Assembly: GCA_964354855.1 (NCBI GenBank)
Contig: CAYHBO010000001.1
Coordinates: 31,045-95,044, forward strand
Length of the DNA: 64,000 bases
Direction: 5' to 3'
Origin: an uncultured Pseudomonadota bacterium
Lineage (GTDB): Bacteria; Babelota; Babeliae; Babelales; RVW-14
The notes beneath the pieces are model-generated. The model was not told the origin of the DNA and did not search any database. It saw only the letters and a list, made by a program, of their open reading frames with translations. A program made the position numbers and the translations under genes. Shown here piece after piece: positions 15,314 through 57,231 of this stretch; positions within the stretch are counted from its first letter, which is position 1, and every line of letters begins with the position of its first letter.

Positions 15314-16426
15314 ATGAAGCGTACATCGATATTATTACTCTTAGTGCCCAATAATTTTTGGCGCATTTTTACCGTATCATTTGATCTTATAAGACGTCAT
15401 CCTCGCGAAAGCGGGGATCCAGGGCTTACTTCTTTTTTAATTCTTTTTTTTGAATTACTTTTTATTAAAAAGACCTGGATCCACGCTTTCGCGAGGATGA
15501 CGTGCGGATTACTTATCTGCTTCTTCAATCAACAGATTTTTTGCAAAGAAAAAGAAACAGTACAAGAAATAATCGACACCCACAAAAAAACACTTTTTCA
15601 AACATATCCAACCAAAACAGAGCAACAGCAATTTACCAATGACCTTGTTGAGCAATCGTTCTCAGGCAAACAAGCAGATCTCTTTTTAAAAATGCATAGC
15701 GATAAAACTCAACACGAATCACTCCAATTTTTGTACACAACCATGTGGTCAGTGCTTGCTGAACATGGCTGGTGTACGTGGGATAGCTCCTGCCTCAAAG
15801 CACTCAAACAAGAACATGATTCTGGAAAAACGATTGTATACATCGGCGGGGGCTGTGATATTTACGAGCTCATCACCAATGGCATCTACAACATCATCGT
15901 CATAGACCCCATTTTACCAACCCAAAAAAATTATTACCCTGATGATTATCTTTATTTAATCCAAGGTTCAGGCCCTGATCATGGCCTGAATGATCAAATC
16001 ACCGGGCTTGCCGGCAACAAAAGGCTTACACTTAAGCGTAGCGGGTTTGAAAGTATGCCTGACTACATAAGCTTTAGCTTACCATCCGGGCAACAACGCT
16101 GTACTCAAGTATCAAAAACAACCTGGACCGTTCTTGATAAAAAACAACATCCGATTGGCACCATTATCTTTGATCGTAGATTTACCACACAAAAAGATTT
16201 TGAATTAGCACCAGACAGAGTGCTATTGTTTTCATGGAACGAGCTATTTTTTGTGATCAATGGTGAATGGGGGATCAAAACAAATCAATTTCAAGATGAC
16301 ATCACGCTTTTTATCAAGCAGCTCAGAAAGCCCATTACCAAAGAAATGATCGATAACATGCATCACGCCCATGAACTTAATCGTTCGAAGTTCAAATTTA
16401 TTGGCCTAGGAAGTCATGTTGTTTAA
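15314..16426 (+). CDS. paralog 1 of a triplicated secreted family (GG-x-D-[IV]-Y / IDP-x-LP-[TS]-Q domain)
   Basis: The roughly 230-aa C-terminal domain aligns with the next two ORFs (TIVYIGGGCDIYELITNGIYNIIVIDPILPTQKNYY, FDRRFTTQKDF, IKQLRKP). A full PE1 element lies in frame in the N-terminus. Confidence 0.6.
   Translation: MKRTSILLLLVPNNFWRIFTVSFDLIRRHPRESGDPGLTSFLILFFELLFIKKTWIHAFARMTCGLLICFFNQQIFCKEKETVQEIIDTHKKTLFQTYPTKTEQQQFTNDLVEQSFSGKQADLFLKMHSDKTQHESLQFLYTTMWSVLAEHGWCTWDSSCLKALKQEHDSGKTIVYIGGGCDIYELITNGIYNIIVIDPILPTQKNYYPDDYLYLIQGSGPDHGLNDQITGLAGNKRLTLKRSGFESMPDYISFSLPSGQQRCTQVSKTTWTVLDKKQHPIGTIIFDRRFTTQKDFELAPDRVLLFSWNELFFVINGEWGIKTNQFQDDITLFIKQLRKPITKEMIDNMHHAHELNRSKFKFIGLGSHVV
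15394..15503 (+). repeat. PE1 palindromic element, full copy (inside CDS)
   Basis: ACGTCATCCTCGCGAAAGCGGGGATCCAG ... CTGGATCCACGCTTTCGCGAGGATGACGT with an AT-rich spacer. Confidence 0.9.
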
Positions 16427-23824: not shown

Positions 23825-23887
23825 GAAAAAGTAACTAAAACTTATAAACTCCATCTTTTATTTTTTTAGCAGCTGATTCTTAGACTT

Positions 23888-30178: not shown

Positions 30179-30206
30179 CTGGATCCTGAAATAAGTTCAG
30201 GATGAC
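30179..30206 (-). repeat. PE3 minimal module
   Basis: CTGGATCCTGAAATAAGTTCAGGATGAC, which is the reverse complement of GTCATCCTGAAC..TTCAGGATCCAG. Confidence 0.7.
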
Positions 30207-30299
30207 AAGTCCAAAAATCAGCATCATAAAAGTATCCATGTGCAGAAAAATTCAGAGTGACATATCCTACACTAAAACCTAAACCCTCAACATAGCCCC

Positions 30300-32021
30300 T
30301 TACACCAATGTCGGTGTAATAAAAATCAACAGTTGTTTATCCTCAAGCTTCTTGCGTTTACCCTTAAAAAGCCATCCAATTACCGGAATCTCCTGAATCC
30401 ATGGCACCCCGGTATGAATAACATCTTTCGAGTTTTCGATAAGCCCACTGATCATGGTCGTCTGTCCGTCACACAACACTACTCGATTACTAGAGCGAGA
30501 CGTCATAATCGTGTAAGGAAATGATCCAAGCTGTGAAGTATTAGACGAACTTGAAATAGTTGCGGTACTGGCTTTAACAAAAGAATTTTGCACAAAAATA
30601 TCTAAGAAGATCGATTTCTGATCAGGCGCCACCGTCGGCTTAACTTTTATTTTCATCCCGATATCTTTATACCCAATCGTTGTAACATTGGTTGGGCTCC
30701 CCGCAACCGTCTCTTGCAACACGGTTGCCTGTGGCATTTCTTGTCCAACCAAAATCTCTGCACACTCCTGGCTTTTTACGAGCAGTGATGGCTTTAGAAT
30801 GGTTTCTAACTCATGCTTTGTTTCCGCAGCATTAAGCATAACATTTAACCGATTGGTACTCAGATTTTTATTTCCGAAAGAAAACGGAATTTGTACAGTT
30901 TTGATGCTAGAAATCGAAGTTGGAATAAAATTTAATGCCCACCCCAAAAGATTCTCAAAGCCGGACGGTTCACTTCCATTTTTTGTACCAACACCAATCC
31001 CTGCAAACTGAAAACCATTCTGAGAGATACTTGCACTACGATCATACATACCGGACCATTCAAAACCAATAGCCTCTTCAAAATCTTTTGATACCATAAC
31101 AATGCGTGCATCAATTCTCACTTGTGGCACATGCATATCAATTTCCTGTAGCGCTTTTTTGAAATCAATTACAAAGTTTTTTCTGCCACGACAAAAAATT
31201 TTACGTGATTCATCATCAAACACAATGTAATGACTTTTAATAAGAATATGGCCAACAATACCATTCCAAAGTTGCTCAATGCGCTTTTTAAATTCAGCAT
31301 TCCAATTTACATAGTGAATGGTAATGTAGTCGGCAACAGTATCCTGCTCGATCGATTTTTCAGCCTTCACTTTTAACTCTTCTATAGCTACATTTTGCTT
31401 AAGAATACGCCATACACCACGGTCATTAATCAACGCAAGTCGTGGAAGATTATTACTCAATAAAATTGAAAGCACCGCAGCTAAAGACGCATCATTGAAC
31501 GAAAAATTTCTGATATACCCATCAACATCGGCATCCATAACAAAATTAATATCGGTAAGCTTACCCACAAGTTCTATTGCCTTACGTAAACTTACTTCGT
31601 GTAATTTTATGGTTACTTTTTTTTCGGTTAACAAAATATCATCATACTGCTTTTCCAATAAGAGCCTGATCTCAGGAACCAAGAGATCTACAACTGCTTT
31701 GGTGGCAGCCTGCTGTTGCGTATTTCCGCGAGGACACTTCGTACAATTTTTATGTTTATTTTTTTTACGCTTTTTCTGGGCAGGCTTTTTGTCATAACAC
31801 TCTTCGTTTTCTTCATTTACCACACGCTCAACAATCGAATTTATGTTTTGAAGTTGCTTCTTTTCTTTCCGATCATACTCCTGTTTTGCAAGTAACGAAT
31901 TGGTTGGCGGAATGGTTATACCATAATGTTCATGCGGCCAGAAGTCTTCTTTCTGTTCTTGTTCATCAGCCCCAAGAACCGATACACCCATAAGAACGGC
32001 TAACAAAAACATTCTTTTCAT
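30300..32021 (-). CDS. pilQ: secretin (PilQ/GspD family)
   Basis: Signal peptide, an STN-like N-domain (VSLRKAIELVGKLTDINFVMD) and a secretin C-domain ending GVPWIQEIPVIGWLFKG......LLIFITPTLV. Confidence 0.85.
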   Translation of the reverse strand: MKRMFLLAVLMGVSVLGADEQEQKEDFWPHEHYGITIPPTNSLLAKQEYDRKEKKQLQNINSIVERVVNEENEECYDKKPAQKKRKKNKHKNCTKCPRGNTQQQAATKAVVDLLVPEIRLLLEKQYDDILLTEKKVTIKLHEVSLRKAIELVGKLTDINFVMDADVDGYIRNFSFNDASLAAVLSILLSNNLPRLALINDRGVWRILKQNVAIEELKVKAEKSIEQDTVADYITIHYVNWNAEFKKRIEQLWNGIVGHILIKSHYIVFDDESRKIFCRGRKNFVIDFKKALQEIDMHVPQVRIDARIVMVSKDFEEAIGFEWSGMYDRSASISQNGFQFAGIGVGTKNGSEPSGFENLLGWALNFIPTSISSIKTVQIPFSFGNKNLSTNRLNVMLNAAETKHELETILKPSLLVKSQECAEILVGQEMPQATVLQETVAGSPTNVTTIGYKDIGMKIKVKPTVAPDQKSIFLDIFVQNSFVKASTATISSSSNTSQLGSFPYTIMTSRSSNRVVLCDGQTTMISGLIENSKDVIHTGVPWIQEIPVIGWLFKGKRKKLEDKQLLIFITPTLV

Positions 32022-32023
32022 TA

Positions 32024-32326
32024 CTACCCAATCTCAACACGTTTAATCTTATTTTTCTTCATAAACTCAACATAATCCGTTGCAATTGTATGCAGCGTAT
32101 AACCTTTTATTTTATCCCCAACCCCCAACGTACGCTGCTTCTCACCATCCTGCACAAGAATGCCACGTAATTTTTTATACTGTACAACCCCGATAATATG
32201 AAAAAGCTTTTTGCGTTTTCGCTGCTGATCAACAGATATTGGAAAAGAAAAAGGGTCTCGAAGTTTTTTTGGGGTAGCAAAAATTGATGCAGACGCCACG
32301 AACAAGAATAAAACAGCCCTAATCAC
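32024..32326 (-). CDS. PilP-like pilus/secretin-associated protein
   Basis: 100 aa with a signal peptide, the RDPF motif (LRDPFSF), and a beta-rich segment GILVQDGEKQRTLGVGDKI.GYTL..I. Adjacent to the secretin gene. Confidence 0.5.
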   Translation of the reverse strand: MIRAVLFLFVASASIFATPKKLRDPFSFPISVDQQRKRKKLFHIIGVVQYKKLRGILVQDGEKQRTLGVGDKIKGYTLHTIATDYVEFMKKNKIKRVEIG

Positions 32327-32856
32327 ACGTCCCCCATATTTATTGAAAGATCAATCTGAAGAAGGCCATGCCCTCCTGATTGTACCGCAAGCCTGATTAC
32401 CACTATCGATAGTTTTTTTACCGCTATAAGTTCAAAAAAACGAAGCAAGTTGCTATACGAACCATTAAGACCCATCACAATCTCACCAGCAACCTTCGAT
32501 GTCACTGGTGGCGCAAACTGGTAGCAGATAAGCCCGGAATTTTTAAATACATGAAAGAGATCGTCAATAAGCCCTTGATGCTCTCCATAACTTTTATACT
32601 GCTCTTTTAGATCATGATATTGTGTCTTAAGTTTTTCATGAACGCCTACAGAATCAGTATATTTTATATGCTTCTCATGTAAATTCTTTAACAAGCTCTC
32701 ATGAGTATTTATGTCTATTTTTTTAGGATGAAGGAGGTGAAGATAGATGATACCGGTCGTCAATCCCAGTACCGTCATCGACAGCATAACGCGCTTAGGA
32801 AAATCAATCCCACGCAGGCCTGCTTTCATTTTTGATTCATGAAGCCAGAAGGACAT
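32323..32856 (-). CDS. PilO/PilN-like bitopic membrane protein (tentative)
   Basis: 177 aa with one TM segment, a coiled-coil and an alpha/beta C-terminus. Overlaps the PilP-like gene by 4 nt. Assignment rests on context only. Confidence 0.35.
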   Translation of the reverse strand: MSFWLHESKMKAGLRGIDFPKRVMLSMTVLGLTTGIIYLHLLHPKKIDINTHESLLKNLHEKHIKYTDSVGVHEKLKTQYHDLKEQYKSYGEHQGLIDDLFHVFKNSGLICYQFAPPVTSKVAGEIVMGLNGSYSNLLRFFELIAVKKLSIVVIRLAVQSGGHGLLQIDLSINMGDV

Positions 32857-32953
32857 ACATTTCCCATTAAGACGAATTTTCTAATCTTGCTGTAAGATAT
32901 GATGCTCAATAAACATAAGTAAATAATTTTAGAAATTTTTATTCTTCTCGAGA

Positions 32954-33685
32954 CTATATTTTATCAATTTCTTCTTCCCAAGCCCCCTGAGCATCTTCCG
33001 GATCTGGTTCAAAACGTCGCCTTAAAAGCTCATCTTTAAAGCCTTCAGGATTCTCATTACTTACCTGTTCTCCTTGAGCATAAATCTCTGCTTCGTCTGT
33101 CCCCGGAAGCCTATTTCTTAAACATTCTATATATCTCACCGCAAGAGCTTTATGATATGCATGCAGCAAGCGCCCCTCGCTTTGTGAATACGAATCAATC
33201 ATCTGAATCATCATTAGAAGACCTCCCAATATTTCTGCATTCTTAAAAAGAGAATAAAAAAAAGCATCATAAGCTTCTTCTTCATGTTTATTTATTAAAT
33301 CTCTTATCACCACACGAGCCTTATCCGATAATCGTACACCTATAATATTTCGAACAACCTCTATCAAATCAGTATCACTGGCACTTGCTTGAGTAGTCCT
33401 CGTTTTTCTACAAAGATCATCATAAATTGCGTTAACAATAGCATCATGTTGCTGTTCAGTCAGCTCAGTAACTTCTTGCTCTTCTTGTGGATGCGCTAAC
33501 GCAGGCAATAACACAGAGCAAGTTGAACCTGGTTGTTGAGGAGAGGATCTCAAGTAAGGCGATCTAACAGAACCCTTCGGCCATTGAGTCCCTTTTTTAC
33601 CAGACGGTTTAGGATTCATAGCACTCACACCACCACCGTAAGCCAAACAGAACATTATCAACATCAATATATTTTTTATCGTCAT
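32954..33685 (-). CDS. array paralog P1 (secreted, unknown function)
   Basis: Leader MTIKNILMLIMF...VSAMNP. Core motifs: IVNAIYDD, LIEVVRNIIGVRLSD, HEEEAYDAFF....NAEILGG, YHKALAVRYI. C-terminal motif FKDELLRRRF. Confidence 0.6.
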   Translation of the reverse strand: MTIKNILMLIMFCLAYGGGVSAMNPKPSGKKGTQWPKGSVRSPYLRSSPQQPGSTCSVLLPALAHPQEEQEVTELTEQQHDAIVNAIYDDLCRKTRTTQASASDTDLIEVVRNIIGVRLSDKARVVIRDLINKHEEEAYDAFFYSLFKNAEILGGLLMMIQMIDSYSQSEGRLLHAYHKALAVRYIECLRNRLPGTDEAEIYAQGEQVSNENPEGFKDELLRRRFEPDPEDAQGAWEEEIDKI

Positions 33686-33757
33686 AACACCACCCCCCTT
33701 GAGTTACTCGTTTTATAAAAAATCGATATTTAATGTACACCCCAGTAATTCAACACA

Positions 33758-34714
33758 TCAAGGCTTCTCACGTTTACGCATGAGACTAATGCCTTTAATT
33801 GCTAGTTCAAGCTGTTTTATTGAGTTAATAGCAGGGGGCCTTGGGGTTAAGCATTTTACAACTATTTCAGGAATAGCTTCGTATTGAGGCTTACGGCGCT
33901 GCTTAAAAAGGGTCTTGTTAAAGCTTTCTTGATCATTTTGGCGAAATTTTATCGCCTTACGATACTTTTTATCCTCATCCACCGTAAAGAATTTTGAACG
34001 AATGCCATTTATATTCCTTATTGCAAGAGCTTTATAAAATGCGCATGAAAACTTAGAATCTTTACATTCATGATAAGAATAAAGGTAAATATACTCCGCT
34101 ACCAGCATAATACCCCCAAGGGCCTCAGCATTATTTAAAACAGCATCAAAATAAAGATCATAAGCCTCTTCTTTGTGCTCTTTGATTAAAATTTCTATGT
34201 CTTCGATAGGTAATTGATTTTTTACAATTTTTTGAACCTCATCGATAAGAGCCGCACGATCATTACATCCTTCACAGCAGGCATTGCGAACTTCATGATC
34301 ATAAATAGCAGTAACAATAAACCCTCGCTGCTTACCATTCAGCAGAGCAAGAAGAGAGTTTTTTCTAGATGCTATTGAAGAAAAAGAGGTAATCTGTTGC
34401 TCTAATAAATCGAGTGATTCTTTTGATGGGATGTGAAGTTGCGGATCAGAAGTTTTATGATGATTAAAAATATTTTTGCCTTGGAAATGATGCGGGGGCC
34501 GATGATAAGCATCAGATCTTATAATAGGCAAATGAAAAGAATCACTTGAATCAGTTTTTTGTGGAGACCTTGACGAAATACCACAAGAAGAGGCATTAGA
34601 ACAAAATTTACGCGTAGACCGAGGACCTTGTTCAGATTGAGGCTTGCTGGGTTGCATGGCAGAGCTGAATTCACCATAAAACATCATCAATATAAATATA
34701 TTTTTTATTTGCAT
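33758..34714 (-). CDS. array paralog P2
   Basis: Leader MQIKNIFILMMF...SSAMQP. Core motifs: IVTAIYDH, LIDEVQKIV, HKEEAYDLYF....NAEALGG, FYKALAIRNI. C-terminal motif FNKTLFKQRR. Confidence 0.6.
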   Translation of the reverse strand: MQIKNIFILMMFYGEFSSAMQPSKPQSEQGPRSTRKFCSNASSCGISSRSPQKTDSSDSFHLPIIRSDAYHRPPHHFQGKNIFNHHKTSDPQLHIPSKESLDLLEQQITSFSSIASRKNSLLALLNGKQRGFIVTAIYDHEVRNACCEGCNDRAALIDEVQKIVKNQLPIEDIEILIKEHKEEAYDLYFDAVLNNAEALGGIMLVAEYIYLYSYHECKDSKFSCAFYKALAIRNINGIRSKFFTVDEDKKYRKAIKFRQNDQESFNKTLFKQRRKPQYEAIPEIVVKCLTPRPPAINSIKQLELAIKGISLMRKREKP

Positions 34715-34762
34715 AACACCCCCCCCAGTTATTAATTTACAAAAAATTTAGTCAAAATAAAT

Positions 34763-35266
34763 TTATCGATTCACTGACTTTATAAAATCTTCATTTGTGT
34801 ACAAAGGCTTCACTTCAAGATCATTCAGTACAGCATCATAAGCAGCAAGAAGTTTTAACTCCCCTTCACCTGGCTTGCACCTAGATAAGATAAGACATAC
34901 TTCCCAATGTTTGAGGTCTGGATTACGGTGCAGTGTATTAAGAAATCTTTTTTTTAAATAATTAAAGAAAACATCGAAAACATATGTATTAACCAAAAGA
35001 ACTGCTTCTTGAAGGCTAAACCCCTCTTTTACAATACTGTCCAAAAGAACTCTTTTTGGATCAGTGTTTATAACCATTATCGCTTCCCCAAAGCGCAACA
35101 AACAGTAACCCTTGATAATTGCCTTAATTTTATCAATCTTATCCGGCACCAGCGTTCGAATAAATTCGGGAATTTCCACAGCAGGCTGCTCTGGTTGATT
35201 CATTGCTATAATATTGCCAAAGAAGCTACTCACAAAAGTCACGTAAAGAATATTTTTAATCTTCAT
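34763..35266 (-). CDS. array paralog P3 (divergent)
   Basis: Leader MKIKNILYVTFV...IIAMNQP. LLDSIVKEGFSLQEAVLLVNTYVFDVFFNYL aligns with P4 and P1. Confidence 0.55.
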   Translation of the reverse strand: MKIKNILYVTFVSSFFGNIIAMNQPEQPAVEIPEFIRTLVPDKIDKIKAIIKGYCLLRFGEAIMVINTDPKRVLLDSIVKEGFSLQEAVLLVNTYVFDVFFNYLKKRFLNTLHRNPDLKHWEVCLILSRCKPGEGELKLLAAYDAVLNDLEVKPLYTNEDFIKSVNR

Positions 35267-35298
35267 AACTACTCCCCTTAAGTTAATTTGATAAAAAA

Positions 35299-35781
35299 TT
35301 ATGCGTTAGATTCAGCAAATTCTATATAAATATCAAGAAGAAAAGCTATGTCGAGACTAGGCCTACAAGCTTTAAGAACTTTAATTTTATCTTCATGATC
35401 GTTAGTAGTATTCAATCTAAGCACAAGATATTCACGGTATACAACAGGAGCATAAACACTAACTAATTCAGACACTTGATCATCAGAAAGAGAATTTCCA
35501 AAGCCTCCTTTGACAACATCTACAAGAGACAGTGAACGATGAGGCCCTTTTGGATAAAATCTTGAATGAAGTGCATCTCTCAAGGTTTTCTTAACTGCTG
35601 TTTTTTGATCTTTAGATAGCGCCTTAATCCACTCAGCAGCCATTGGCGATGCTGGTTCTTGAAAAGAATTATTTGGGACAACAAGTTGTCCATCTAGTCC
35701 AGTAGGACGTTGCTCCATCGCAACAATATTACCAGTAAAACCACAAGCGAGAATTAACATCATAATATTTCTTATCGTCAT
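35299..35781 (-). CDS. array paralog P4 (divergent)
   Basis: Leader MTIRNIMMLILA...IVAMEQ. LVDVVKGGFGNSLSDDQVSELVSVY aligns with the P1 segment LIEVVRNIIGVRLSD. Confidence 0.55.
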   Translation of the reverse strand: MTIRNIMMLILACGFTGNIVAMEQRPTGLDGQLVVPNNSFQEPASPMAAEWIKALSKDQKTAVKKTLRDALHSRFYPKGPHRSLSLVDVVKGGFGNSLSDDQVSELVSVYAPVVYREYLVLRLNTTNDHEDKIKVLKACRPSLDIAFLLDIYIEFAESNA

Positions 35782-35953
35782 AGAAAGATCCTTATAATTA
35801 ATTTATTTTTGTACGCTATTCTTCGATTGTCGCTGGTACAAGGCGATTTAAGGAAATGCAGTATATTTTTAATCGACCTACTCGTCAATAGGTTTCGCTA
35901 ACAAATTGTAATTATCAAGTTTTTTTAACAGATTGTTCTTGTAGAACCTGAAC

Positions 35954-36688
35954 TCATCGTTTGTATAAAGCTCCATAGTATTCAACTGGACTAACAACGC
36001 TCAAGTTTCCTGCAGTTTCATATTTTTGCTCATCTATTTTTTCAAACACTCTCCCACCTTCACAAAGAAGCAGATTGTCTCTTACCATCGCAAGAGGCTT
36101 CCATAAGACTCCCCATCCTTTGGGTACAATTTTTTTTATAACTTCATCTCTAAAGAAATCCGCCACCTCTCTTACTAATTGACGCCCGCCTAAATCTCTA
36201 GCATTAATAAATGTATCTCGAATAAAATTGGTGATTGCTTTTTTCTTAGCTTCAAGAATGACCCTGGAGCCATCTTCATCCTCGATTACATCACTTACTA
36301 GCCCCTGCACCAATCTATTTAATTCTTCTACTTCTGGACCCATTCTGAGCAAAACAGTAGAGACATATTGATGAAATAATACCTGATCAAAACTTTTAAC
36401 CTCTTCTTCTTGATTAAAAAATTTCATAATTTCACCATAATAATAACCATGAAGAACATCAATGAGTGGTTTATCCAAGGCTCCCAAGCGAGTTGGGTTC
36501 TCTTCACTTGATTCTAAGGACCACCCCGGCGTTTTAACCGCAACAACGCCCACCCCTTCTTCGTCTGTAACCGTTATGCCTTCTTGTGTTAATTCCCGAT
36601 TTAAGTTCTCGTCTGCTGACTGCATGGCAATAACATTTGATCCAAAGCCCCACAACCAAAACAGTACCGCTAAGTTTTTTATTTTCAT
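35954..36688 (-). CDS. array paralog P5
   Basis: Leader MKIKNLAVLFWL...VIAMQS. FINARDLGG aligns with the NAE.LGG motif. Its ATG overlaps the P6 stop codon (ATGA). Confidence 0.55.
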   Translation of the reverse strand: MKIKNLAVLFWLWGFGSNVIAMQSADENLNRELTQEGITVTDEEGVGVVAVKTPGWSLESSEENPTRLGALDKPLIDVLHGYYYGEIMKFFNQEEEVKSFDQVLFHQYVSTVLLRMGPEVEELNRLVQGLVSDVIEDEDGSRVILEAKKKAITNFIRDTFINARDLGGRQLVREVADFFRDEVIKKIVPKGWGVLWKPLAMVRDNLLLCEGGRVFEKIDEQKYETAGNLSVVSPVEYYGALYKR

Positions 36689-37287
36689 CCTCCCCCTCCA
36701 CCACCCATTTTTGATCGTCTTCGCAATAAGCGCTCTCCAAACTCGTTGCTATCTCTGGCCTTAAGTCTTTCTACTCGTTCACTTTTTACCCAATCTTGCT
36801 CTGTCTTAGGTCGATTATAAAGCGCTCGTATAACCGAATGATTCAGCACTTCATCATACATTGGTAATAACCATTGATCGCTTGGTTTAAACCGCAGCCA
36901 CGCATCAAAAACATATTCATACCCACTCACAACTTTCGCAACAAGATCAATCCCTCCAAGCTCTTCTGCATTAAGAAGAACGTCGGTAAAAAATTGAAAA
37001 TAAGCCTCAGGTCGATAGCCATTTCTCAAAGTAAAAATCGCATCAGGAGTTAACCTCAATTCAGGAACACTGGCTTTTATGTCTTGCTCAAGCTTTACTC
37101 GAGCATCAGGGTCCCTTTTATACAATCGAATTATATCATCATGAAGAGCGGTAATTATTTTATGTGTTTGAATCTTAGAATGAGCCTGTACCCATGCCGG
37201 TCGCTTATCTTGATTAACCTGCATAGCAAATATAAATTGATAGGTAGAAGAAACAACGCAGCACAAGAGAATATTTTTTATCTTCAT
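36685..37287 (-). CDS. array paralog P6
   Basis: Leader MKIKNILLCCVV...IFAMQ. Motifs: IITALHDD, PEAYFQFFTDVLLNAEELGG. C-terminal FGERLLRRRS followed by a Gly6 tail. Confidence 0.6.
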   Translation of the reverse strand: MKIKNILLCCVVSSTYQFIFAMQVNQDKRPAWVQAHSKIQTHKIITALHDDIIRLYKRDPDARVKLEQDIKASVPELRLTPDAIFTLRNGYRPEAYFQFFTDVLLNAEELGGIDLVAKVVSGYEYVFDAWLRFKPSDQWLLPMYDEVLNHSVIRALYNRPKTEQDWVKSERVERLKARDSNEFGERLLRRRSKMGGGGGG

Positions 37288-37352
37288 AACGCCTCTCTCC
37301 AGTAATCAAACGCCTTTTAACGCATTTTTATGACATTATTTAATTTTTCAGC

Positions 37353-37455
37353 ACGTCATCCTCGCGAATGCGGGGATCCAGACCTTCGAATAAAATAATC
37401 CAAAGACCAACAAGAAAGAAGTAAGACCTGGATCCCCGCATTCGCGAGGATGACG
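37353..37455 (-). repeat. PE1 element, full copy, spacer inverted (intergenic between P6 and pilB)
   Basis: ACGTCATCCTCGCGAATGCGGGGATCCAG ... CTGGATCCCCGCATTCGCGAGGATGACG. Confidence 0.9.
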
Positions 37456-37490
37456 CCTCAAAGAACTAAAATAACCTATTAATAGGTAAC

Positions 37491-39197
37491 TTATATTTCA
37501 TTAGCCTCTTCAAAATGCGCCACACCTAGAACCTCTTCAATTGTGGTAATTCCCAAAGCAACACAACGAATACCATCATTAATCAATAGCGTCATCCCTT
37601 GTTCTAGCGCTTTATTTTTAATGGTTACCGCATCGGCTTTTTGAATAATCAACGTAGCAATCTGATCGGTAATTTCCATAATTTCGAACAATGGCAAGCG
37701 TCCTCGGTAGCCTTTATTAAGACACTCATCACACCCAACCGGCTCATAAAAAGTTATTCCTTTTGCGGTTACTGGTGTTAAACCAATGCGCAACAGCGTA
37801 TCTGAGGTTGGAATATATGCTCGCTTACATTTTTTACACAATCTTCGTACAAGCCGCTGAGAGATAACACAGATCAACGAAGAGGCAATTAAAAATGGCT
37901 CAATGCCCATATCAATCAATCGCGTCACCGTTGCGGGAGCACTGTTTGTATGAATTGTACTAAGCACCAAGTGACCGGTTAATGCTGCTTGCGTTGCGAT
38001 CTGCGCCGTTTCGGTATCTCGAATTTCCCCGATCAGTACAATGTCAGGATCTTGTCGCAAAATTTCACGCAATGCAGTCGCAAACGTTAGCCCAATTTTA
38101 GCGTTAACGTTCACCTGGTTAATCCCATTAATGGTATATTCAACCGGATCTTCGACGGTAACTAAGTTAACATCAGGCTCATTAAGCCGAGAAAGTATCG
38201 AATAAAGCGTTGTGGTTTTCCCGGAACCAGTTGGTCCACTGACCATAATAATCCCGTTAGGGCGCTGAATAATGTTCACCACTTTATCATAATCTGTTTT
38301 ACTAAGATTAAGATTCTCAAGCTCTTGCGTGCCGGTTGATTTGTACAACAAGCGCATTACCACTTTTTCACCAAAGTTTGTCGGCAGCACCGATACCCGA
38401 AGATCGAGTGGCTTGTCGGCAACCTTAATCATGATCCGTCCACTTTGAGGAAGCCGCTTTTCAGCAATATTCATGTTCGACATAATTTTTATACGAGAAA
38501 CAATGGCGCCTTGAAATCGTTTGGGGGGGATCATCCGTTGATACAAGTTGCCATCAATACGATAGCGCACCCGTAACTCTTTTTCGTATGCTTCAATGTG
38601 AATATCAGAAGCCCCTTCTTTAGCCGCTTGAAACAAAAGATGGTTTACCAATTTAACAATGGGAGCTTCATTGGCCATCTCCATGATATCTTTTTCTTCA
38701 ATATCCCCCATGATGCCAAATTCAGCCTCTTCTTCTTCTTTAAGTTCTTCCATCATCTCCCCACCGGTCTCAAGCGGGTAATATTTATTGATGGCATCAT
38801 TAATGCTAATTTCAGTTGCAACCGCATAACGAACATCGCCCGACATCAATAATGCAAGGTCATCAAGTGGTTGTAGATCCCGCGGGTTTGCGGTAACAAT
38901 AGTTTTTTGGCCTTCAAACATGATTGGGATAACGCAATTTTGACGTAGAAATTTCAACGGGGTCTTTTTTAGTAGGCTTACATCGGCCATTTGCTCAGTC
39001 ACCATTTCAATGAACGGAACTTCAACCTGGGCTGCGAGCGCACGTGCAAGATCAATTTTAGAAACGAGCCCTTGCTCAAGTAGTAATTGCCCAAGAAGCT
39101 TGCCTGTTTTCTTTTGCTCTTTTAAACATTCCTGTAACTGTTCTTCGCTGATAATATTGAGGTCTATAAGAAGATCGCCGATACGTTTTCGCAACAT
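37491..39197 (-). CDS. pilB: type II secretion / type IV pilus assembly ATPase (GspE/PilB family)
   Basis: MshEN-like N-domain, Walker A GPTGSGKTTTLYS, Asp/His boxes and the tetracysteine CKKC...CDEC. Confidence 0.9.
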   Translation of the reverse strand: MLRKRIGDLLIDLNIISEEQLQECLKEQKKTGKLLGQLLLEQGLVSKIDLARALAAQVEVPFIEMVTEQMADVSLLKKTPLKFLRQNCVIPIMFEGQKTIVTANPRDLQPLDDLALLMSGDVRYAVATEISINDAINKYYPLETGGEMMEELKEEEEAEFGIMGDIEEKDIMEMANEAPIVKLVNHLLFQAAKEGASDIHIEAYEKELRVRYRIDGNLYQRMIPPKRFQGAIVSRIKIMSNMNIAEKRLPQSGRIMIKVADKPLDLRVSVLPTNFGEKVVMRLLYKSTGTQELENLNLSKTDYDKVVNIIQRPNGIIMVSGPTGSGKTTTLYSILSRLNEPDVNLVTVEDPVEYTINGINQVNVNAKIGLTFATALREILRQDPDIVLIGEIRDTETAQIATQAALTGHLVLSTIHTNSAPATVTRLIDMGIEPFLIASSLICVISQRLVRRLCKKCKRAYIPTSDTLLRIGLTPVTAKGITFYEPVGCDECLNKGYRGRLPLFEIMEITDQIATLIIQKADAVTIKNKALEQGMTLLINDGIRCVALGITTIEEVLGVAHFEEANEI

Positions 39198-40649: not shown

Positions 40650-40683
40650 AAACCCCCGCAGATCTTAGATCAACGGGGGTTTT
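40650..40683. terminator. bidirectional rho-independent terminator hairpin
   Basis: aaacccccg-(15 nt)-cgggggttt lies between convergent genes and is flanked by A/T runs. Confidence 0.7.
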
Positions 40684-40713: not shown

Positions 40714-41781
40714 CTACCGTAATGGGGTAGGATCTTTTCTACATAAAGGGCACGTAGGATTACTCTTTAAGCAATCGTTAATACACTTTTTATGAAACTG
40801 ATTTTTGCAACAGTTAGTAAAGACAACATTCTTTACAAGCGACTCAAGACAAATAGGACATATATCACTTTCAGCCCCCGCAACAACCCCAGAAGAAGTA
40901 CCACTTTCTGCTTCTTGAGTAAGAGTAACAATAGCCGCTGTTAATTCAATAATCTTTTCGGAAAGTCGCGCTGAAGAGGAAAGAAGATTTTTATTCTCTT
41001 CTTTTTGTTTCTGAAGAACAGCTTTAACCTGATTGTATTTAGTAATTTTTGGTTCAAGAACTTTCTTTTTATATTCTTCATAACAAGATTGAAACTCATG
41101 ATGATTTCCTATTCTTTGAACACATTCTGCAACAGGAATAAAGGCATCTTCAAGTTTCTTTACCATAACAGCTATCTGTGGCTGTAAGCCTTCAATTTTA
41201 GTTTTAATTCCTTGCACATCAACCTTTGTTTCTACAAATTTAGCGGCAATTGAACCCTTGTTTTCCGACAACTGCTTCTTAAGTTCTTCGCTTATCTTTG
41301 ACGCTTGAACTCTTAATTTTTTCAAGTCTCTGTAGGCCACATAAAGAGAGGCTTCCCCTGGGTAGCTTTTTTTCGCATACGCCACCAAGTCTTCATTCTT
41401 TAATGGCAATTTTCCTGGAATAGATTCAACGAATTTTTTTGCATCATCAAGCTGTTTTGCAATATCATTATGCAAGGATTCAAACACACCACGCTCTTGA
41501 TTTTCTTTCCACTCAACTGTTTGAGGAAGTACCGCTAAACAGGTCAAGCCCCCAGCAAATAGCCCACAAATTGAAGCCCAAAGCATTTCTTTTGTGCCAA
41601 TAGTCTTCTCTTTTTTATATTTATCCCAAGCAAGCTTTCCACATAATCCCGCAAGCCCTACTCCGGCTGAAATACCAAATACTGCATTTTTACTTACATC
41701 TATACTTGGACTTGTTTGTCCTGCACAAGAAAGCATAAATAATAAAATAAGCGCTTTAATTCGTCTATAATTAAATAACAT
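40714..41781 (-). CDS. membrane-anchored coiled-coil protein with C-terminal RING-H2-like zinc finger
   Basis: Leader plus 2 TM segments and a long coiled-coil. The C-terminus CPICLESLVKNVVFTNCCKNQFHKKCINDCLKSNPTCPLCRK (about 40717-40860) matches the eukaryotic RING-H2 pattern C-x2-C...C-x-H-x-F-H-x2-C-I..W-L.....CP-x-CR. The H4 position is N, and an extra adjacent Cys is present. Confidence 0.75.
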   Translation of the reverse strand: MLFNYRRIKALILLFMLSCAGQTSPSIDVSKNAVFGISAGVGLAGLCGKLAWDKYKKEKTIGTKEMLWASICGLFAGGLTCLAVLPQTVEWKENQERGVFESLHNDIAKQLDDAKKFVESIPGKLPLKNEDLVAYAKKSYPGEASLYVAYRDLKKLRVQASKISEELKKQLSENKGSIAAKFVETKVDVQGIKTKIEGLQPQIAVMVKKLEDAFIPVAECVQRIGNHHEFQSCYEEYKKKVLEPKITKYNQVKAVLQKQKEENKNLLSSSARLSEKIIELTAAIVTLTQEAESGTSSGVVAGAESDICPICLESLVKNVVFTNCCKNQFHKKCINDCLKSNPTCPLCRKDPTPLR

Positions 41782-41824
41782 AATAAATCCCCTAAAAACC
41801 CACCAACCCTAGATACTATAATTC

Positions 41825-42712
41825 TTAACCAAATTTTAGTCTTAACTTATTTATATCTTCTTGTAGTTGTCTTATTTGTGCAAATTTAACCTTATCCTCA
41901 TCCCGAAGACGGGCATTTGTTTCAGTTATATTTTTAAGATCAGCTTCAAGCTCATCATACTTTGCTATTTTTTGCTCAAGCTCATGTTGCTCACAATGAA
42001 ATGCATAATATGAATGACCCTGTATTTCTTTTATACACGAAGTAACATCACCAATAACAGCATTAAGACTTGCTATCAAAGCCGGCAATTCTTTAACTAA
42101 AGCATCAATGCGCGACTTAAAGCCCTGAATGTTAAATTTTGAAGAAGTAAACTTAGGCATAATCGTCGCTGTTATTTCTTCCTGTTGTTTTACCAACGCA
42201 TCATGTATCTTTACCACTTGTTCTCTTAATGGATTCAAATTTTTATCAGCTAAACACAGCGACCATGATTCTTTATAAACTCTAGCAGCATAAGCTCGAA
42301 TATCTTCTTTAACTCTTGGTAGCTTTGCTCGTATATTTTGAGTAAGAAGTTTTGCCTCTTCAAGTTTTTTTTCACCAGAACTACAAAAGCTCTCAAAAAG
42401 CTCTTGCTCTTTTTGTTCTTGCCATTCAACAGATTGCGGCAATAAAACGGCACAGGTAATACCCCCTAAAAACAAGCCACAGAAAGAACCCCACAGCATT
42501 TCTTTCATGCCAATAGTTTTACTATTTTTAAACTTATCCCAAGCAAGTTTCCCACATAGCCCTAAAAAGCCTGCTCCAGCGGAAATACCAAATGCCGTAT
42601 TTTTAGTTAAACCAGCCATTAAACCATTTTCTGATTCCGACCTTATCTGGCTAGCTAAAGAAAGCACGAGCATCAAAACAACAGCTTTAATTAGTTTATG
42701 ATTGAATAACAT
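41825..42712 (-). CDS. RING-less paralog of the 40714-41781 protein
   Basis: The N-terminal roughly 120 aa and the 5' UTR are nearly collinear with the neighbour (MLFNHKLIKAV... versus MLFNYRRIKAL...). It ends in coiled-coil with no zinc finger. The ORF-track extension to 42778 reads through a PE2 repeat. Confidence 0.6.
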   Translation of the reverse strand: MLFNHKLIKAVVLMLVLSLASQIRSESENGLMAGLTKNTAFGISAGAGFLGLCGKLAWDKFKNSKTIGMKEMLWGSFCGLFLGGITCAVLLPQSVEWQEQKEQELFESFCSSGEKKLEEAKLLTQNIRAKLPRVKEDIRAYAARVYKESWSLCLADKNLNPLREQVVKIHDALVKQQEEITATIMPKFTSSKFNIQGFKSRIDALVKELPALIASLNAVIGDVTSCIKEIQGHSYYAFHCEQHELEQKIAKYDELEADLKNITETNARLRDEDKVKFAQIRQLQEDINKLRLKFG

Positions 42713-42749
42713 AATAAATCTCCTAAAAAATCCCACCAACCCTAAATGT

Positions 42750-42787
42750 CGCTCGTCCTGAGGAGCCCGTAAAGGCATCTCGAAGGA
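42750..42787 (+). repeat. PE2 element (right module), in the 5' leader region of the RING-less paralog (opposite strand)
   Basis: GCTCGTCCTGAGGAGCCCGTAAAGGCATCTCGAAGGAT. Confidence 0.8.
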
Positions 42788-48846: not shown

Positions 48847-48901
48847 TGTTGATAACTTGTGGATAACTTGTTGATAACTTGTGGATAACTTGTTGATAAC
48901 T
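48847..48901 (-). repeat. five tandem 11-bp units TTGT[T/G]GATAAC (DnaA-box-like, complementary orientation)
   Basis: Read directly. Units at 48847, 48858, 48869, 48880 and 48891, alternating the TGTTGATAA and TGTGGATAA forms. Confidence 0.9.
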
Positions 48902-48997
48902 TTTTAAGTCTTTCATTTAATCGTGCTATAAGCCTTATTCAATGGATAATTCTCTATAATAACTACCCAATAGACCTTTTCATGACAAGAAAAAAAG

Positions 48998-49042
48998 TTA
49001 TCAACAAGTTATCCACAAGTTATCAACATAGTTATCAACAAT
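48998..49042 (+). repeat. four 11-bp units GTTATC[A/C]ACAA, inverted relative to 48847-48901
   Basis: Read directly. Units at 48998, 49009 (perfect TTATCCACA), 49020 and 49032. Confidence 0.9.
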
Positions 49043-56703: not shown

Positions 56704-57231
56704 ATGATGAAAAGAAAAAAAATGTACCTTGTAGGTATGTTAGCGTTGCAAATACTTAGCCCGTTAGGACTGCCTGTTCTAATGTGTAGAGATGATTTAG
56801 AAGCTAAAGAAAATGCGTCTCGACGACCTCTGAAGGGGGCATGGAAATGTAGGGTTTGCCATAAAACTGTTTATAGGGGGAAACATACGTGTCCTGGAAG
56901 AGGAATATTAGATGAGGATACTCAGGAATCACGACCTAGTCTCTCTCAAGAAGAAAATGCGCCTCGACGACCTCTGAAGGGGACATGGCAATGTAAGTCT
57001 TGTGGAAAAACGGTTTATCGTGGAAAGCATACGTGTTCTAGAAGAGAAGAGGGTGAACATCATCAGAGGCCTTTCTCTCGTCGACTTACAGGAGACGTGA
57101 CTGGCAGAGATTCAGAAGCTGAAGAAAGACGACCGAGGCCTATGAAAGGGGTTTCTCGATGCCGCTCTTGTTCTGAGGTCTTTCGTTTAAATCAAAAACA
57201 TCAATGTCCAGAGAAAGAATCGTTGGATTAA
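56704..57231 (+). CDS. secreted protein with three tandem C-x2-C-x(8-10)-H-x-C modules
   Basis: Leader, then RRPLKGAWKCRVCHKTVYRGKHTCPGR, RRPLKGTWQCKSCGKTVYRGKHTCSRR and RPMKGVSRCRSCSEVFRLNQKHQCPEK. The DNA repeat has a period of about 141 bp. Confidence 0.55.
   Translation: MMKRKKMYLVGMLALQILSPLGLPVLMCRDDLEAKENASRRPLKGAWKCRVCHKTVYRGKHTCPGRGILDEDTQESRPSLSQEENAPRRPLKGTWQCKSCGKTVYRGKHTCSRREEGEHHQRPFSRRLTGDVTGRDSEAEERRPRPMKGVSRCRSCSEVFRLNQKHQCPEKESLD

Follow-up and report, generated by a model that had tools for sequence, protein, structure and literature searches.

A candidate host-directed ubiquitin-ligase family in Dependentiae, built on a putative membrane scaffold

What is a RING finger of eukaryotic type doing at the end of a bacterial protein with a leader and two hydrophobic segments, and why does the paralog encoded next to it lack one? 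The question is raised by a tandem gene pair in the 64-kb stretch of DNA analyzed here (contig CAYHBO010000001.1 of assembly GCA_964354855.1, positions 31,045 to 95,044; hereafter the window, to whose numbering coordinates refer). An earlier note on this DNA had proposed that the RING-bearing protein is a candidate host-ubiquitination effector. We find this to be the best reading of the data presented below: the genome is of the obligate intracellular Dependentiae type, the gene belongs to a syntenic, fast-evolving and export-tagged family, and a paralog carries a second kind of ligase module on the same scaffold. In its fuller form, which we hold to be rather probable, the protein would be exported through Sec, insert into a membrane and serve there as a scaffold displaying a ubiquitin-ligase module to the host.

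Both genes lie on the minus strand. The RING gene (40714-41781) is a continuous open reading frame (ORF) of 355 codons and a stop, encoding in succession a leader, a hydrophobic hairpin, a helical domain, a linker and the RING. Its twin, listed among the ORFs at 41825-42778 (317 aa), lies 43 nt upstream, and the two products share 41% identity over 282 aa (E 7e-72; range 41-43%), so that the tandem paralog pair described in the earlier note exists as such. The start of the twin needs correction. Nearly identical blocks of 33-35 nt, TAGGGTTGGTGGG(A)TTTTTAGGrGATTTATT-ATG, precede the ATG at 41781 and an internal ATG at 42712, each with a Shine-Dalgarno sequence 8-9 nt 5' of the ATG; the first copy (41782-41814) occupies part of the 43-nt spacer, the second (42713-42747) marks the start of the twin, and the 13-mer TAGGGTTGGTGGG has exact occurrences only at these two sites within the window. 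Because of this duplication, we place the true start at Met23, which makes the twin a protein of 295 aa (41825-42712, stop included) consisting of leader, hairpin and helical domain only; the 22-codon extension is therefore an ORF-calling artefact. The end coordinate of 42787 first given for the pair took in that extension. The 5' untranslated region said to be common to the two genes is indeed nearly identical, but only over the ribosome-binding region of about 33 nt. No trace was found of a PE2 repeat said to sit in the twin's leader: the segment 42713-42895 aligns to the palindromic repeat families of the window at chance-level scores only, and the hairpin it can form is weak and no more stable than in shuffled sequence (z -0.47).

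A GC-rich inverted repeat (40650-40682) separates the RING gene from the convergent amino-acid permease gene. It can fold into a hairpin of -25 kcal/mol (z -3.8), a stability equaled by none of 200 shuffled sequences. Given this hairpin 3' of the RING gene and the 43-nt spacing, the pair looks like a two-gene operon: twin and RING copy are probably co-transcribed, with the hairpin likely serving as the bidirectional terminator that closes the unit. A scan with consensus promoters and terminators gave no more matches than expected from shuffled sequence, and Rfam has no match in the window.

The RING assignment rests on several lines of evidence. The C-terminal peptide on which it was originally based, CPICLESLVKNVVFTNCCKNQFHKKCINDCLKSNPTCPLCRK, is encoded at 40717-40860 as claimed, with the finger proper (residues C308-R348, 40738-40860, minus strand) delimited by alignment to RNF38 and RNF4 and by structural superposition. 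The profile search that had been proposed as a check turned out positive: at 35.2 bits, the match to Pfam PF13639 (zf-RING_2) exceeds the gathering score of 27.3 (E 1.5e-8) and spans positions 2-44 of the 44 in the profile. The sequence matches in the PDB are all RINGs of ubiquitin ligases (E3s), including RNF4, RNF38, Praja1, ZNRF3, RNF126 and Pex10. In the AlphaFold 2 (AF2) model, the finger (predicted local distance difference test, pLDDT, 74-86) adopts the cross-brace ββα fold and superposes on RNF165 in its complex with UbcH5b~Ub (5ulk_C; root-mean-square deviation 1.0 Å, TM score 0.83), and also on HRD1 (6a3z; 1.3 Å) and RNF38 in complexes with ubiquitin-charged conjugating enzymes (E2~Ub), an outcome that, as far as the fold goes, answers the call for structural modeling in the same sense. 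A U-box was considered as an alternative class of E3 and discarded: the finger has a set of Cys/His ligands, and zinc RING families give its best profile matches. As judged from sequence and model, the C terminus of the RING copy is thus a bona fide finger of the RING-H2 type, in a variant form.

The variation concerns the second zinc site. Seven of the eight ligands are retained (C308 and C311 as ligands 1 and 2, C325 as 3, H330 and C333 as 5 and 6, C344 and C347 as 7 and 8), and the canonical His at ligand 4 is replaced by Asn327, so that the finger does not fit the full pattern C-x2-C-x(9-39)-C-x(1-3)-H-x(2-3)-H-x2-C-x(4-48)-C-x2-C. In addition, the Trp that usually contacts the E2 is replaced by Cys337; this position is Trp in four of the five family relatives and Ala in P0005. 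Other positions involved in E2 contact or linchpin function are intact, namely Ile310, Pro345 and Arg348, the last one occupying the linchpin position of Arg454 in RNF38 (entry 9q8y). The earlier note had already pointed out both substitutions.

These two substitutions are the basis of the most serious alternative, according to which the finger has degenerated into a pseudo-ligase: without His-4 and Trp, the second zinc site or E2 activation would be crippled, and the protein, like the twin, could act only as a scaffold, as an E2 trap or in a dominant-negative manner. The window RING is an outlier within its family (about 40% identity to the other family RINGs, as compared to 43-54% among these), and the genome already tolerates a RING-less copy. 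What argues against decay is the residue next to ligand 3. The window finger has an extra Cys (Cys324) directly before Cys325, which the earlier note had suggested as a substitute ligand. We collected all RING motifs present in the 150 top-ranking matches of an exhaustive HMMER search, whose scope was 1.84 billion cluster representatives. Where ligand 4 is neither His nor Cys, a Cys immediately precedes ligand 3 in 29 of 31 motifs; where it is His, this is so in only 5 of 169. The association between Cys doublet and non-His ligand 4 (29/5/2/164) has a Fisher p of 1.7e-27, a value overstated by the phylogenetic relatedness of the hits. The pattern recurs across many otherwise unrelated proteins, and the residue at ligand 4 varies, Asn and Lys being the commonest as read by eye from the motif list. 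As the doublet almost always accompanies the loss of His-4, it constitutes a recurrent variant rather than a sign of decay. The covariation backs the idea that the Cys324-Cys325 doublet replaces the missing ligand at the second zinc site, a role that we infer from sequence. With the seven canonical ligands, Ile310, Pro345 and Arg348 kept, a profile score above the gathering threshold and a confidently predicted fold, and with an active bacterial precedent for an atypical second site (SneRING, see below), we regard the pseudo-ligase explanation as unlikely and a functional RING variant as the better description.

The doublet defines a subtype, C-x2-C-x(11-13)-C-C-x-[NKSTQ]-x-[FY]-H-x2-C, in which two adjacent Cys take the place of the C-x-H dyad. 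It is widespread in AT-rich proteins of giant-viral or protist-like appearance, some with multiple RINGs (P0006, P0039, P0086) and others combining a RING with a C-terminal transmembrane segment (P0023, P0028, P0052, P0090). We know of no structural description of this subtype.

Proteins of this last kind bear on the source of the window RING. Against the roughly 40% identity to its own family stands an identity of 51-59%, with about twice the BLOSUM score, when it is compared with small tail-anchored RING proteins of the CC type, encoded on giant-virus-like contigs (GVMAG loci, with DNA ligase and RNase H genes as neighbors); the best match in BFVD is protein A0A5B8IDX4 of Mimiviridae sp. ChoanoV1. 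A word-index homology search with the 54-aa RING returned no candidate. The closest RINGs, of the form CC-x-N-x-F-H (P0023, P0028 and P0052; loci L041 and L042; A0A5B8IDX4), share with the window finger the doublet and the non-His ligand 4. They differ in everything else, being proteins of 80-180 aa with an N-terminal RING, a C-terminal membrane helix and no helical scaffold. Only their neighbors and the GVMAG labels point to a viral origin. The window RING may thus have been swapped or heavily remodeled, an interpretation that is suggestive only, resting as it does on 42 residues.

The same resemblance could be taken to mean that a RING fragment from a host or a giant virus was mis-joined to a bacterial contig during assembly, or that the sequence is a eukaryotic contaminant. 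This is scarcely credible. The identical protein is encoded on four independent contigs from three samples, the ORF is continuous and furnished with a bacterial Shine-Dalgarno sequence and terminator, the GC content (0.37-0.38) is unremarkable within the range of the window (0.34-0.42), and syntenic RING-bearing orthologs are found in two other genomes.

These orthologs belong to a small family, defined by the N-terminal part of the protein. In the HMMER scan, the first ~280 residues are common to six proteins only, the two of the window (P0001 and P0002) and four relatives (P0004, P0005, P0010 and P0102; phmmer E values from 7e-58 to 3.5e-5 over query residues 5-284), which align through a conserved leader, two hydrophobic helices and a (T)PEW/VEW motif. 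P0004, P0005, P0010 and P0102 end in canonical C3H2C3 RING-H2 fingers; all eight ligands are present in these four and in a further member, L125:2-1180. The five RING-bearing members all match the RING profile (best 2e-12), and six of six family RINGs have Ile before the second ligand, Pro after the seventh and Arg after the eighth. A hidden Markov model (HMM) built from the N-terminal part alone matches ORFs at loci L123 and L124 and three ORFs on contig L125 (1e-143 to 3e-38).

Gene order ties the family to its bacterial context. The arrangement NusA-InfB-LpxK-GT4-[family gene] is common to the window, L004 (P0005) and L123 (P0004); at L004, the genes that come next are the same as in the window, first that for the permease, in opposite orientation, and then that for GspE/PilB, and the L123 contig stops just past the family gene. 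A second paralog, P0102, comes from the same assembly as P0004 and lies at another locus (L124). The flanking genes of the window genome are 50-89% identical to those of L004, as against 22% for the RING protein, a rate of divergence that is, by this sequence comparison, typical of host-interaction proteins.

In both L004 and L123, the family gene is single and the twin is absent. The presence of one RING-bearing gene at each locus implies that the ancestral state was a single gene and that the twin arose by a tandem duplication specific to this lineage. Its alignment with the RING copy extends as far as the beginning of the linker, where the twin ends; this fits a partial-gene duplication extending from 33 nt upstream of the start to about codon 293. 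Decay, one of the fates proposed for it, is disfavored: the ORF is intact, its Shine-Dalgarno sequence and start are conserved, and its rate of change is no higher than that of the RING copy. When unique changes were counted in a Tajima-type relative-rate test, using four outgroups in turn, the twin had 14-29 and the RING copy 24-26 (p 0.11-0.79).

The distribution of the family is narrow. A word-index homology search with the full RING protein retrieved only itself, and one with the family profile only P0005 and the query. A scan of the GTDB representative genomes with the paralog alignment gave no relative, which means that the species is not in that set. In JGI metagenomes, an alignment of four relatives matched 80 loci through the RING stretch only, and the N-terminal HMM matched none of the 80. 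With the family HMM, no member was found within up to 10 kb on either side of the GspE/PilB gene at 33 other loci of Dependentiae/Babeliales type; hence the synteny is limited to a narrow clade.

The most informative contig is L125 (Logan SRR22388162). It carries three family members in tandem: L125:2-1180, L125:1459-3081 on the plus strand, and L125:3038-4312. The first and third end in RING-H2 fingers. The product of the middle gene shares their leader, hairpin and scaffold (N-terminal HMM 1.3e-81) and bears, in place of the RING, a complete Ariadne-type RING1-IBR-RING2 (RBR) module. Pfam IBR matches it in two stretches (1.3e-12), and alignment to ARIH2/ARIH1 extends over 194 residues (E 1.9e-15), pairing the catalytic GCDHMTC with GCNHMQC; this is the only member that combines RING1-IBR-RING2 with a catalytic Cys in a G-C-x-H-M-x-C context. 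We know of no characterized bacterial RBR ligase. RING and RBR modules both depend on E2~ubiquitin, and their occurrence on one scaffold is hard to explain unless the scaffold presents a ligase to a eukaryotic ubiquitin system.

Adjoining this array is a gene for an ankyrin-repeat protein of 674 aa (L125:4402-6426, minus strand) with the leader MYSYKKIKILILSMLL. A stereotyped leader, M-x3-KKIK/R followed by 10-12 hydrophobic residues and then a Q/P-rich stretch, is common to this protein and to the RING/RBR family. Such similarity hints at a common export signal for proteins with eukaryote-like domains in this clade.

The scaffold itself matches nothing known: the N-terminal ~290 residues have no counterpart in Pfam, NCBIfam or PDB folds. 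Both copies share the features described originally, namely a leader, two hydrophobic segments and a helical layout, as seen from the hydropathy scan and the predicted model. The leader comprises residues 1-24 in each copy and has a basic n-region followed by a hydrophobic core (MLFNYRRIKALILLFMLSCAGQTS in the RING copy, 41710-41781, minus strand). A lipoprotein interpretation of Cys19, within the loose lipobox FMLS-C, was rejected as a family feature, this Cys not being conserved in the twin or in the relatives. Two Gly/Ala-rich, moderately hydrophobic helices follow (41521-41688, minus strand), at residues 32-51 and 65-87 in the RING copy and 39-57 and 71-95 in the twin by hydropathy; the AF2 model of the RING copy has helices at 31-57 and 63-84. 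In the RING copy they are joined by a Lys-rich loop of 13 residues, and the hairpin is conserved in the family alignment. The helical scaffold domain (residues 89-292; 40906-41517, minus strand), conserved in the six family members, consists of four long helices at 89-124, 145-184, 190-225 and 230-292, modeled with a pLDDT of about 85-94. A flexible Gly/Ser-rich linker, ESGTSSGVVAGAESD (residues 293-307; 40861-40905, minus strand), leads to the RING and has a pLDDT below 50 at 295-305. The earlier note had likened this architecture to eukaryotic transmembrane RING ligases. The likeness proves superficial, as the first 290 residues match no known family.

We take the leader to be a putative Sec signal. 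The distribution of charges (+3 at the N terminus, +5/-3 in the inter-helix loop, acidic after helix 3) would, by the positive-inside rule, leave the C-terminal domain outside the bacterial cytoplasm. This topology opens the way to a different reading, in which the protein belongs to the bacterial envelope: an inner-membrane anchor carrying a periplasmic helical domain, with a Cys/His domain that has nothing to do with ubiquitin and mediates zinc-dependent interactions or redox reactions. Leader, helices and Lys-rich loop would all be compatible with it, and so would the position of the gene between those for LpxK and the GT4 transferase on one side and the GspE/PilB-secretin cluster on the other. 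The domain, though, specifically matches eukaryotic E3 RINGs down to E2-contact and linchpin residues, the protein evolves far faster than its envelope neighbors, and the organism lives as an obligate parasite inside eukaryotic cells. Above all, a complete Ariadne-type RBR with its catalytic Cys motif, as found in the paralog, has no conceivable substrate in the periplasm. We consider the envelope alternative improbable, somewhat more so than a pseudo-ligase, and return to a protein that would act on the host side. The two Gly/Ala-rich helices are only marginally hydrophobic. By analogy with the chlamydial inclusion membrane (Inc) proteins, they may fail to integrate stably into the bacterial membrane and instead enter a membrane of the host or of the interface.

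The identity of the organism fits a host-directed function. The flanking genes are bacterial (NusA, IF2, LpxK, a WecA/MraY-type transferase, an amino-acid permease, a GspE/PilB ATPase and a PilQ/GspD secretin), and the neighboring ATPase is 57-74% identical to proteins from metagenome-assembled genomes labeled Candidatus Babeliales, Candidatus Dependentiae or candidate division TM6. By sequence, the genome thus belongs to Candidatus Dependentiae (TM6, Babeliales); assignments to Chlamydiae and, on account of the REP-like repeats, to Legionellales were discarded in view of these neighboring genes. Cultured Dependentiae are obligate intracellular parasites of amoebae and flagellates. One of them, Babela massiliensis, encodes a RING finger domain protein, an F-box protein and deubiquitinases, and was predicted to exploit host ubiquitin (PMC4378268). 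The type II secretion system (T2SS) is the only secretion system reported for this bacterium (PMC4378268). In Chromulinavorax, signal peptides are found on 44% of coding sequences and on 78% of ankyrin proteins (PMC6561590).

Could the finger instead serve a conjugation or anti-phage system of the bacterium's own, with a ubiquitin-like protein encoded by the bacterium? Ubiquitination-like bacterial defense systems are now known (PMC12591485). Within 10 kb in the window or at the syntenic loci, however, there is no gene for an E1, an E2, a ubiquitin-like protein or a JAB-type or other deubiquitinase, and the leaders and membrane anchors of the family are typical of exported proteins. To our knowledge, moreover, the bacterial systems in question do not use RING-H2 fingers. 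We judge this possibility very remote.

We therefore come back to the exported ligase scaffold and to how it might work. Each member would consist of a scaffold (Sec-type leader, two-helix hydrophobic hairpin and helical domain of ~200 residues) and an interchangeable C-terminal ubiquitin-ligase module, which is mostly a RING-H2, a CC-variant RING in the window copy and an Ariadne-type RBR in one paralog. Leader and positive-inside pattern suggest export through Sec, placing the C-terminal domain outside the cytoplasm. Passage to the host side might then involve vesicles or machinery of the T2SS/type IV pilus (T4P) type, the latter being a candidate because the T2SS is the only system reported for B. 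massiliensis; a cluster of this type lies ~1.5 kb from the pair, a proximity that we do not count as evidence for the route. Like the chlamydial Incs, the protein could be held in a membrane of the host or of the interface by its weakly hydrophobic hairpin. There, sequence and predicted fold suggest that the RING would recruit charged host E2~ubiquitin via Ile310, Pro345 and the linchpin Arg348, with the Cys324-Cys325 doublet standing in, if the covariation is a guide, for His-4 at the second zinc site, and would promote ubiquitin transfer onto nearby proteins of the host or the bacterial surface. More speculatively, the twin might be a heteromeric partner or regulator without a RING of its own, pairing or competing with the RING copy by way of the hairpin and helical domain that both possess.

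Some observations weigh against this scheme. To the loss of the canonical His at ligand 4 and of the usual Trp, discussed above, one must add that the leader and two helices predict a periplasmic location for the C-terminal domain if they are integrated in the bacterial inner membrane, that classical T2SS substrates are soluble, and that the family is known from only four to five metagenomic genomes.

Comparison with characterized systems places the family at a crossroads of several. The nearest functional precedent is SneRING (SNE_A12920) of Simkania negevensis, an experimentally validated RING E3 whose second zinc site was modeled as N-x2-C/C-x2-C (PMC12591485). It is active with E2s of the UbcH5 type and partly associated with host endoplasmic reticulum and mitochondrial membranes; described in 2025, it appears to be the first zinc-RING ligase characterized in a Chlamydia-like organism. 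Little is known of bacterial RING-type ligases, and the authors of the SneRING study state that knowledge of bacterial RING and U-box ligases is limited (PMC12591485). Like the window protein, it has a RING of the zinc type, comes from a bacterium that infects amoebae and lives only inside cells, and has an atypical, Asn-containing second site (N-x2-C for C-x-H). In contrast, SneRING has its RING at the N terminus, followed by an α/β domain, lacks leader, hairpin and helical scaffold, and comes from the phylum Chlamydiota; it shows no detectable homology outside the RING and is not among the matches of the HMMER search. The RING protein of B. massiliensis shares phylum and lifestyle with the present one, is annotated as a potential E3, and belongs to an organism for which export by the T2SS was proposed (PMC4378268); it was mentioned only as a domain match and was not linked to the present scaffold family. 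Three unrelated ORFs with RING-like Cys/His patterns occur at other Babeliales/TM6 loci (L008:636-1505, L009:1595-2398 and L027:16507-17643, all on the minus strand). RING-type domains may be commoner in the phylum than the lone Babela example suggests.

The architecture inspires an analogy with the Inc proteins. The hydrophobic domain of the RING copy (residues 32-87, about 56 residues with a 13-residue loop) corresponds to the bilobed domain of Incs, of about 40-60 residues, and is likewise followed by a long helical or coiled-coil domain; in Incs, this domain faces the host cytosol. Fast evolution and tandem paralog arrays are further traits in common. Still, Incs carry a type III signal and are confined to Chlamydiota, unlike the window protein with its seemingly Sec-type leader and Dependentiae genome, and there is no sequence homology between the two. 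Membership of the Inc class, as type III substrates of Chlamydiota, was rejected, the genome being from Dependentiae, of which B. massiliensis is reported to have only a T2SS.

On the eukaryotic side, RNF38, RNF165/Arkadia-like proteins, RNF4 and HRD1 resemble the window RING in sequence and predicted fold, including Ile, Pro and linchpin Arg, and the ATL and PA-TM-RING (RNF13) proteins have a membrane anchor N-terminal to a C-terminal RING-H2. They differ from the window protein by its Asn at ligand 4, CC doublet and Cys in place of Trp. The rest of that protein is unrelated to them, and its gene is bacterial and syntenic in bacterial genomes. Finally, the U-box effectors LubX and GobX of Legionella and NleG of enterohemorrhagic Escherichia coli are E2-dependent ligase mimics delivered into the host, GobX being targeted to membranes. 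Their fold has no zinc ligands, they are delivered by type IV or type III secretion systems (T4SS or T3SS), and their architectures are unrelated to the one described here. Eukaryote-like ubiquitin domains in amoeba-associated bacteria are thus already known, as are RING fingers in Babela (predicted) and Simkania (validated). What is new is the family and its architecture, absent from Pfam and NCBIfam and from the full-text literature searched, along with the evidence for an exchange of ligase modules including an RBR, the CC-doublet ligand variant and the RING-less duplicate.

Several other features of the window deserve mention. The GspE/PilB-to-PilQ/GspD cluster (30300-39197, minus strand) contains seven small genes (160-318 aa) with no match in Pfam or NCBIfam. 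Several of these have near-identical 5' ends and upstream sequences, forming repeat family D7 (33651, 34680, 35747 and 37253), and may be divergent paralogs of pseudopilins or assembly proteins. A palindromic element of ~30 nt, GTCATCCTCGCGAAwGCGGGGATCCAG, recurs in intergenic positions at 15396, 16505, 17916, 25504, 37355, 55587 and 58060, with inverted partners at 15470, 17977, 25601, 37423, 55655, 58131 and 58179; copies are often arranged in inverted pairs ~36 nt apart, reminiscent of repetitive extragenic palindromes (REP) or miniature inverted-repeat transposable elements (MITE). A second, rarer element, ACTTGTCATCCTGAACTTGCCTGCCCGCCGAAGC, is present at 23884 and 61257; part of it recurs in inverted orientation at 30193-30231. 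Perfect inverted repeats of 34-37 nt, built from the DnaA-box-like words TTATCCACA and TTATCAACA, occupy 48847-49028, in a 670-nt gap between nusA and a Peptidase_C11 gene. They coincide with the minimum of the cumulative GC skew (about 48-50 kb), and this segment is a probable replication origin, though no dnaA gene is adjacent. Lastly, an ORF of 175 aa (56704-57231, plus strand) begins with a signal-like leader and contains three RRPLKGxWxCxxCxKTVYRGKHTC repeats, the third one degenerate; two of them correspond to a 96-nt direct repeat whose copies start 144 nt apart. It has no Pfam match, and its product could be a small secreted protein of Cys-repeat or zinc-ribbon-like type.

Dependentiae are widespread, almost uncultured parasites of protists whose effectors and delivery routes are essentially uncharacterized. 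The family described here is a testable candidate for the point at which these bacteria make contact with host ubiquitin signaling. It is also a natural experiment in the swapping of ligase modules on a single scaffold, which bears a RING, a CC-RING, an RBR or none. One could envision, as a tentative and broader hypothesis, that a Dependentiae clade evolved an exportable membrane scaffold onto which modules derived from hosts or giant viruses (RING-H2, CC-RING, RBR) are exchanged, with RING-less partners for tuning and delivery that requires neither T3SS nor T4SS. If this were true, the RBR protein of L125 would be the first bacterial RBR ligase.

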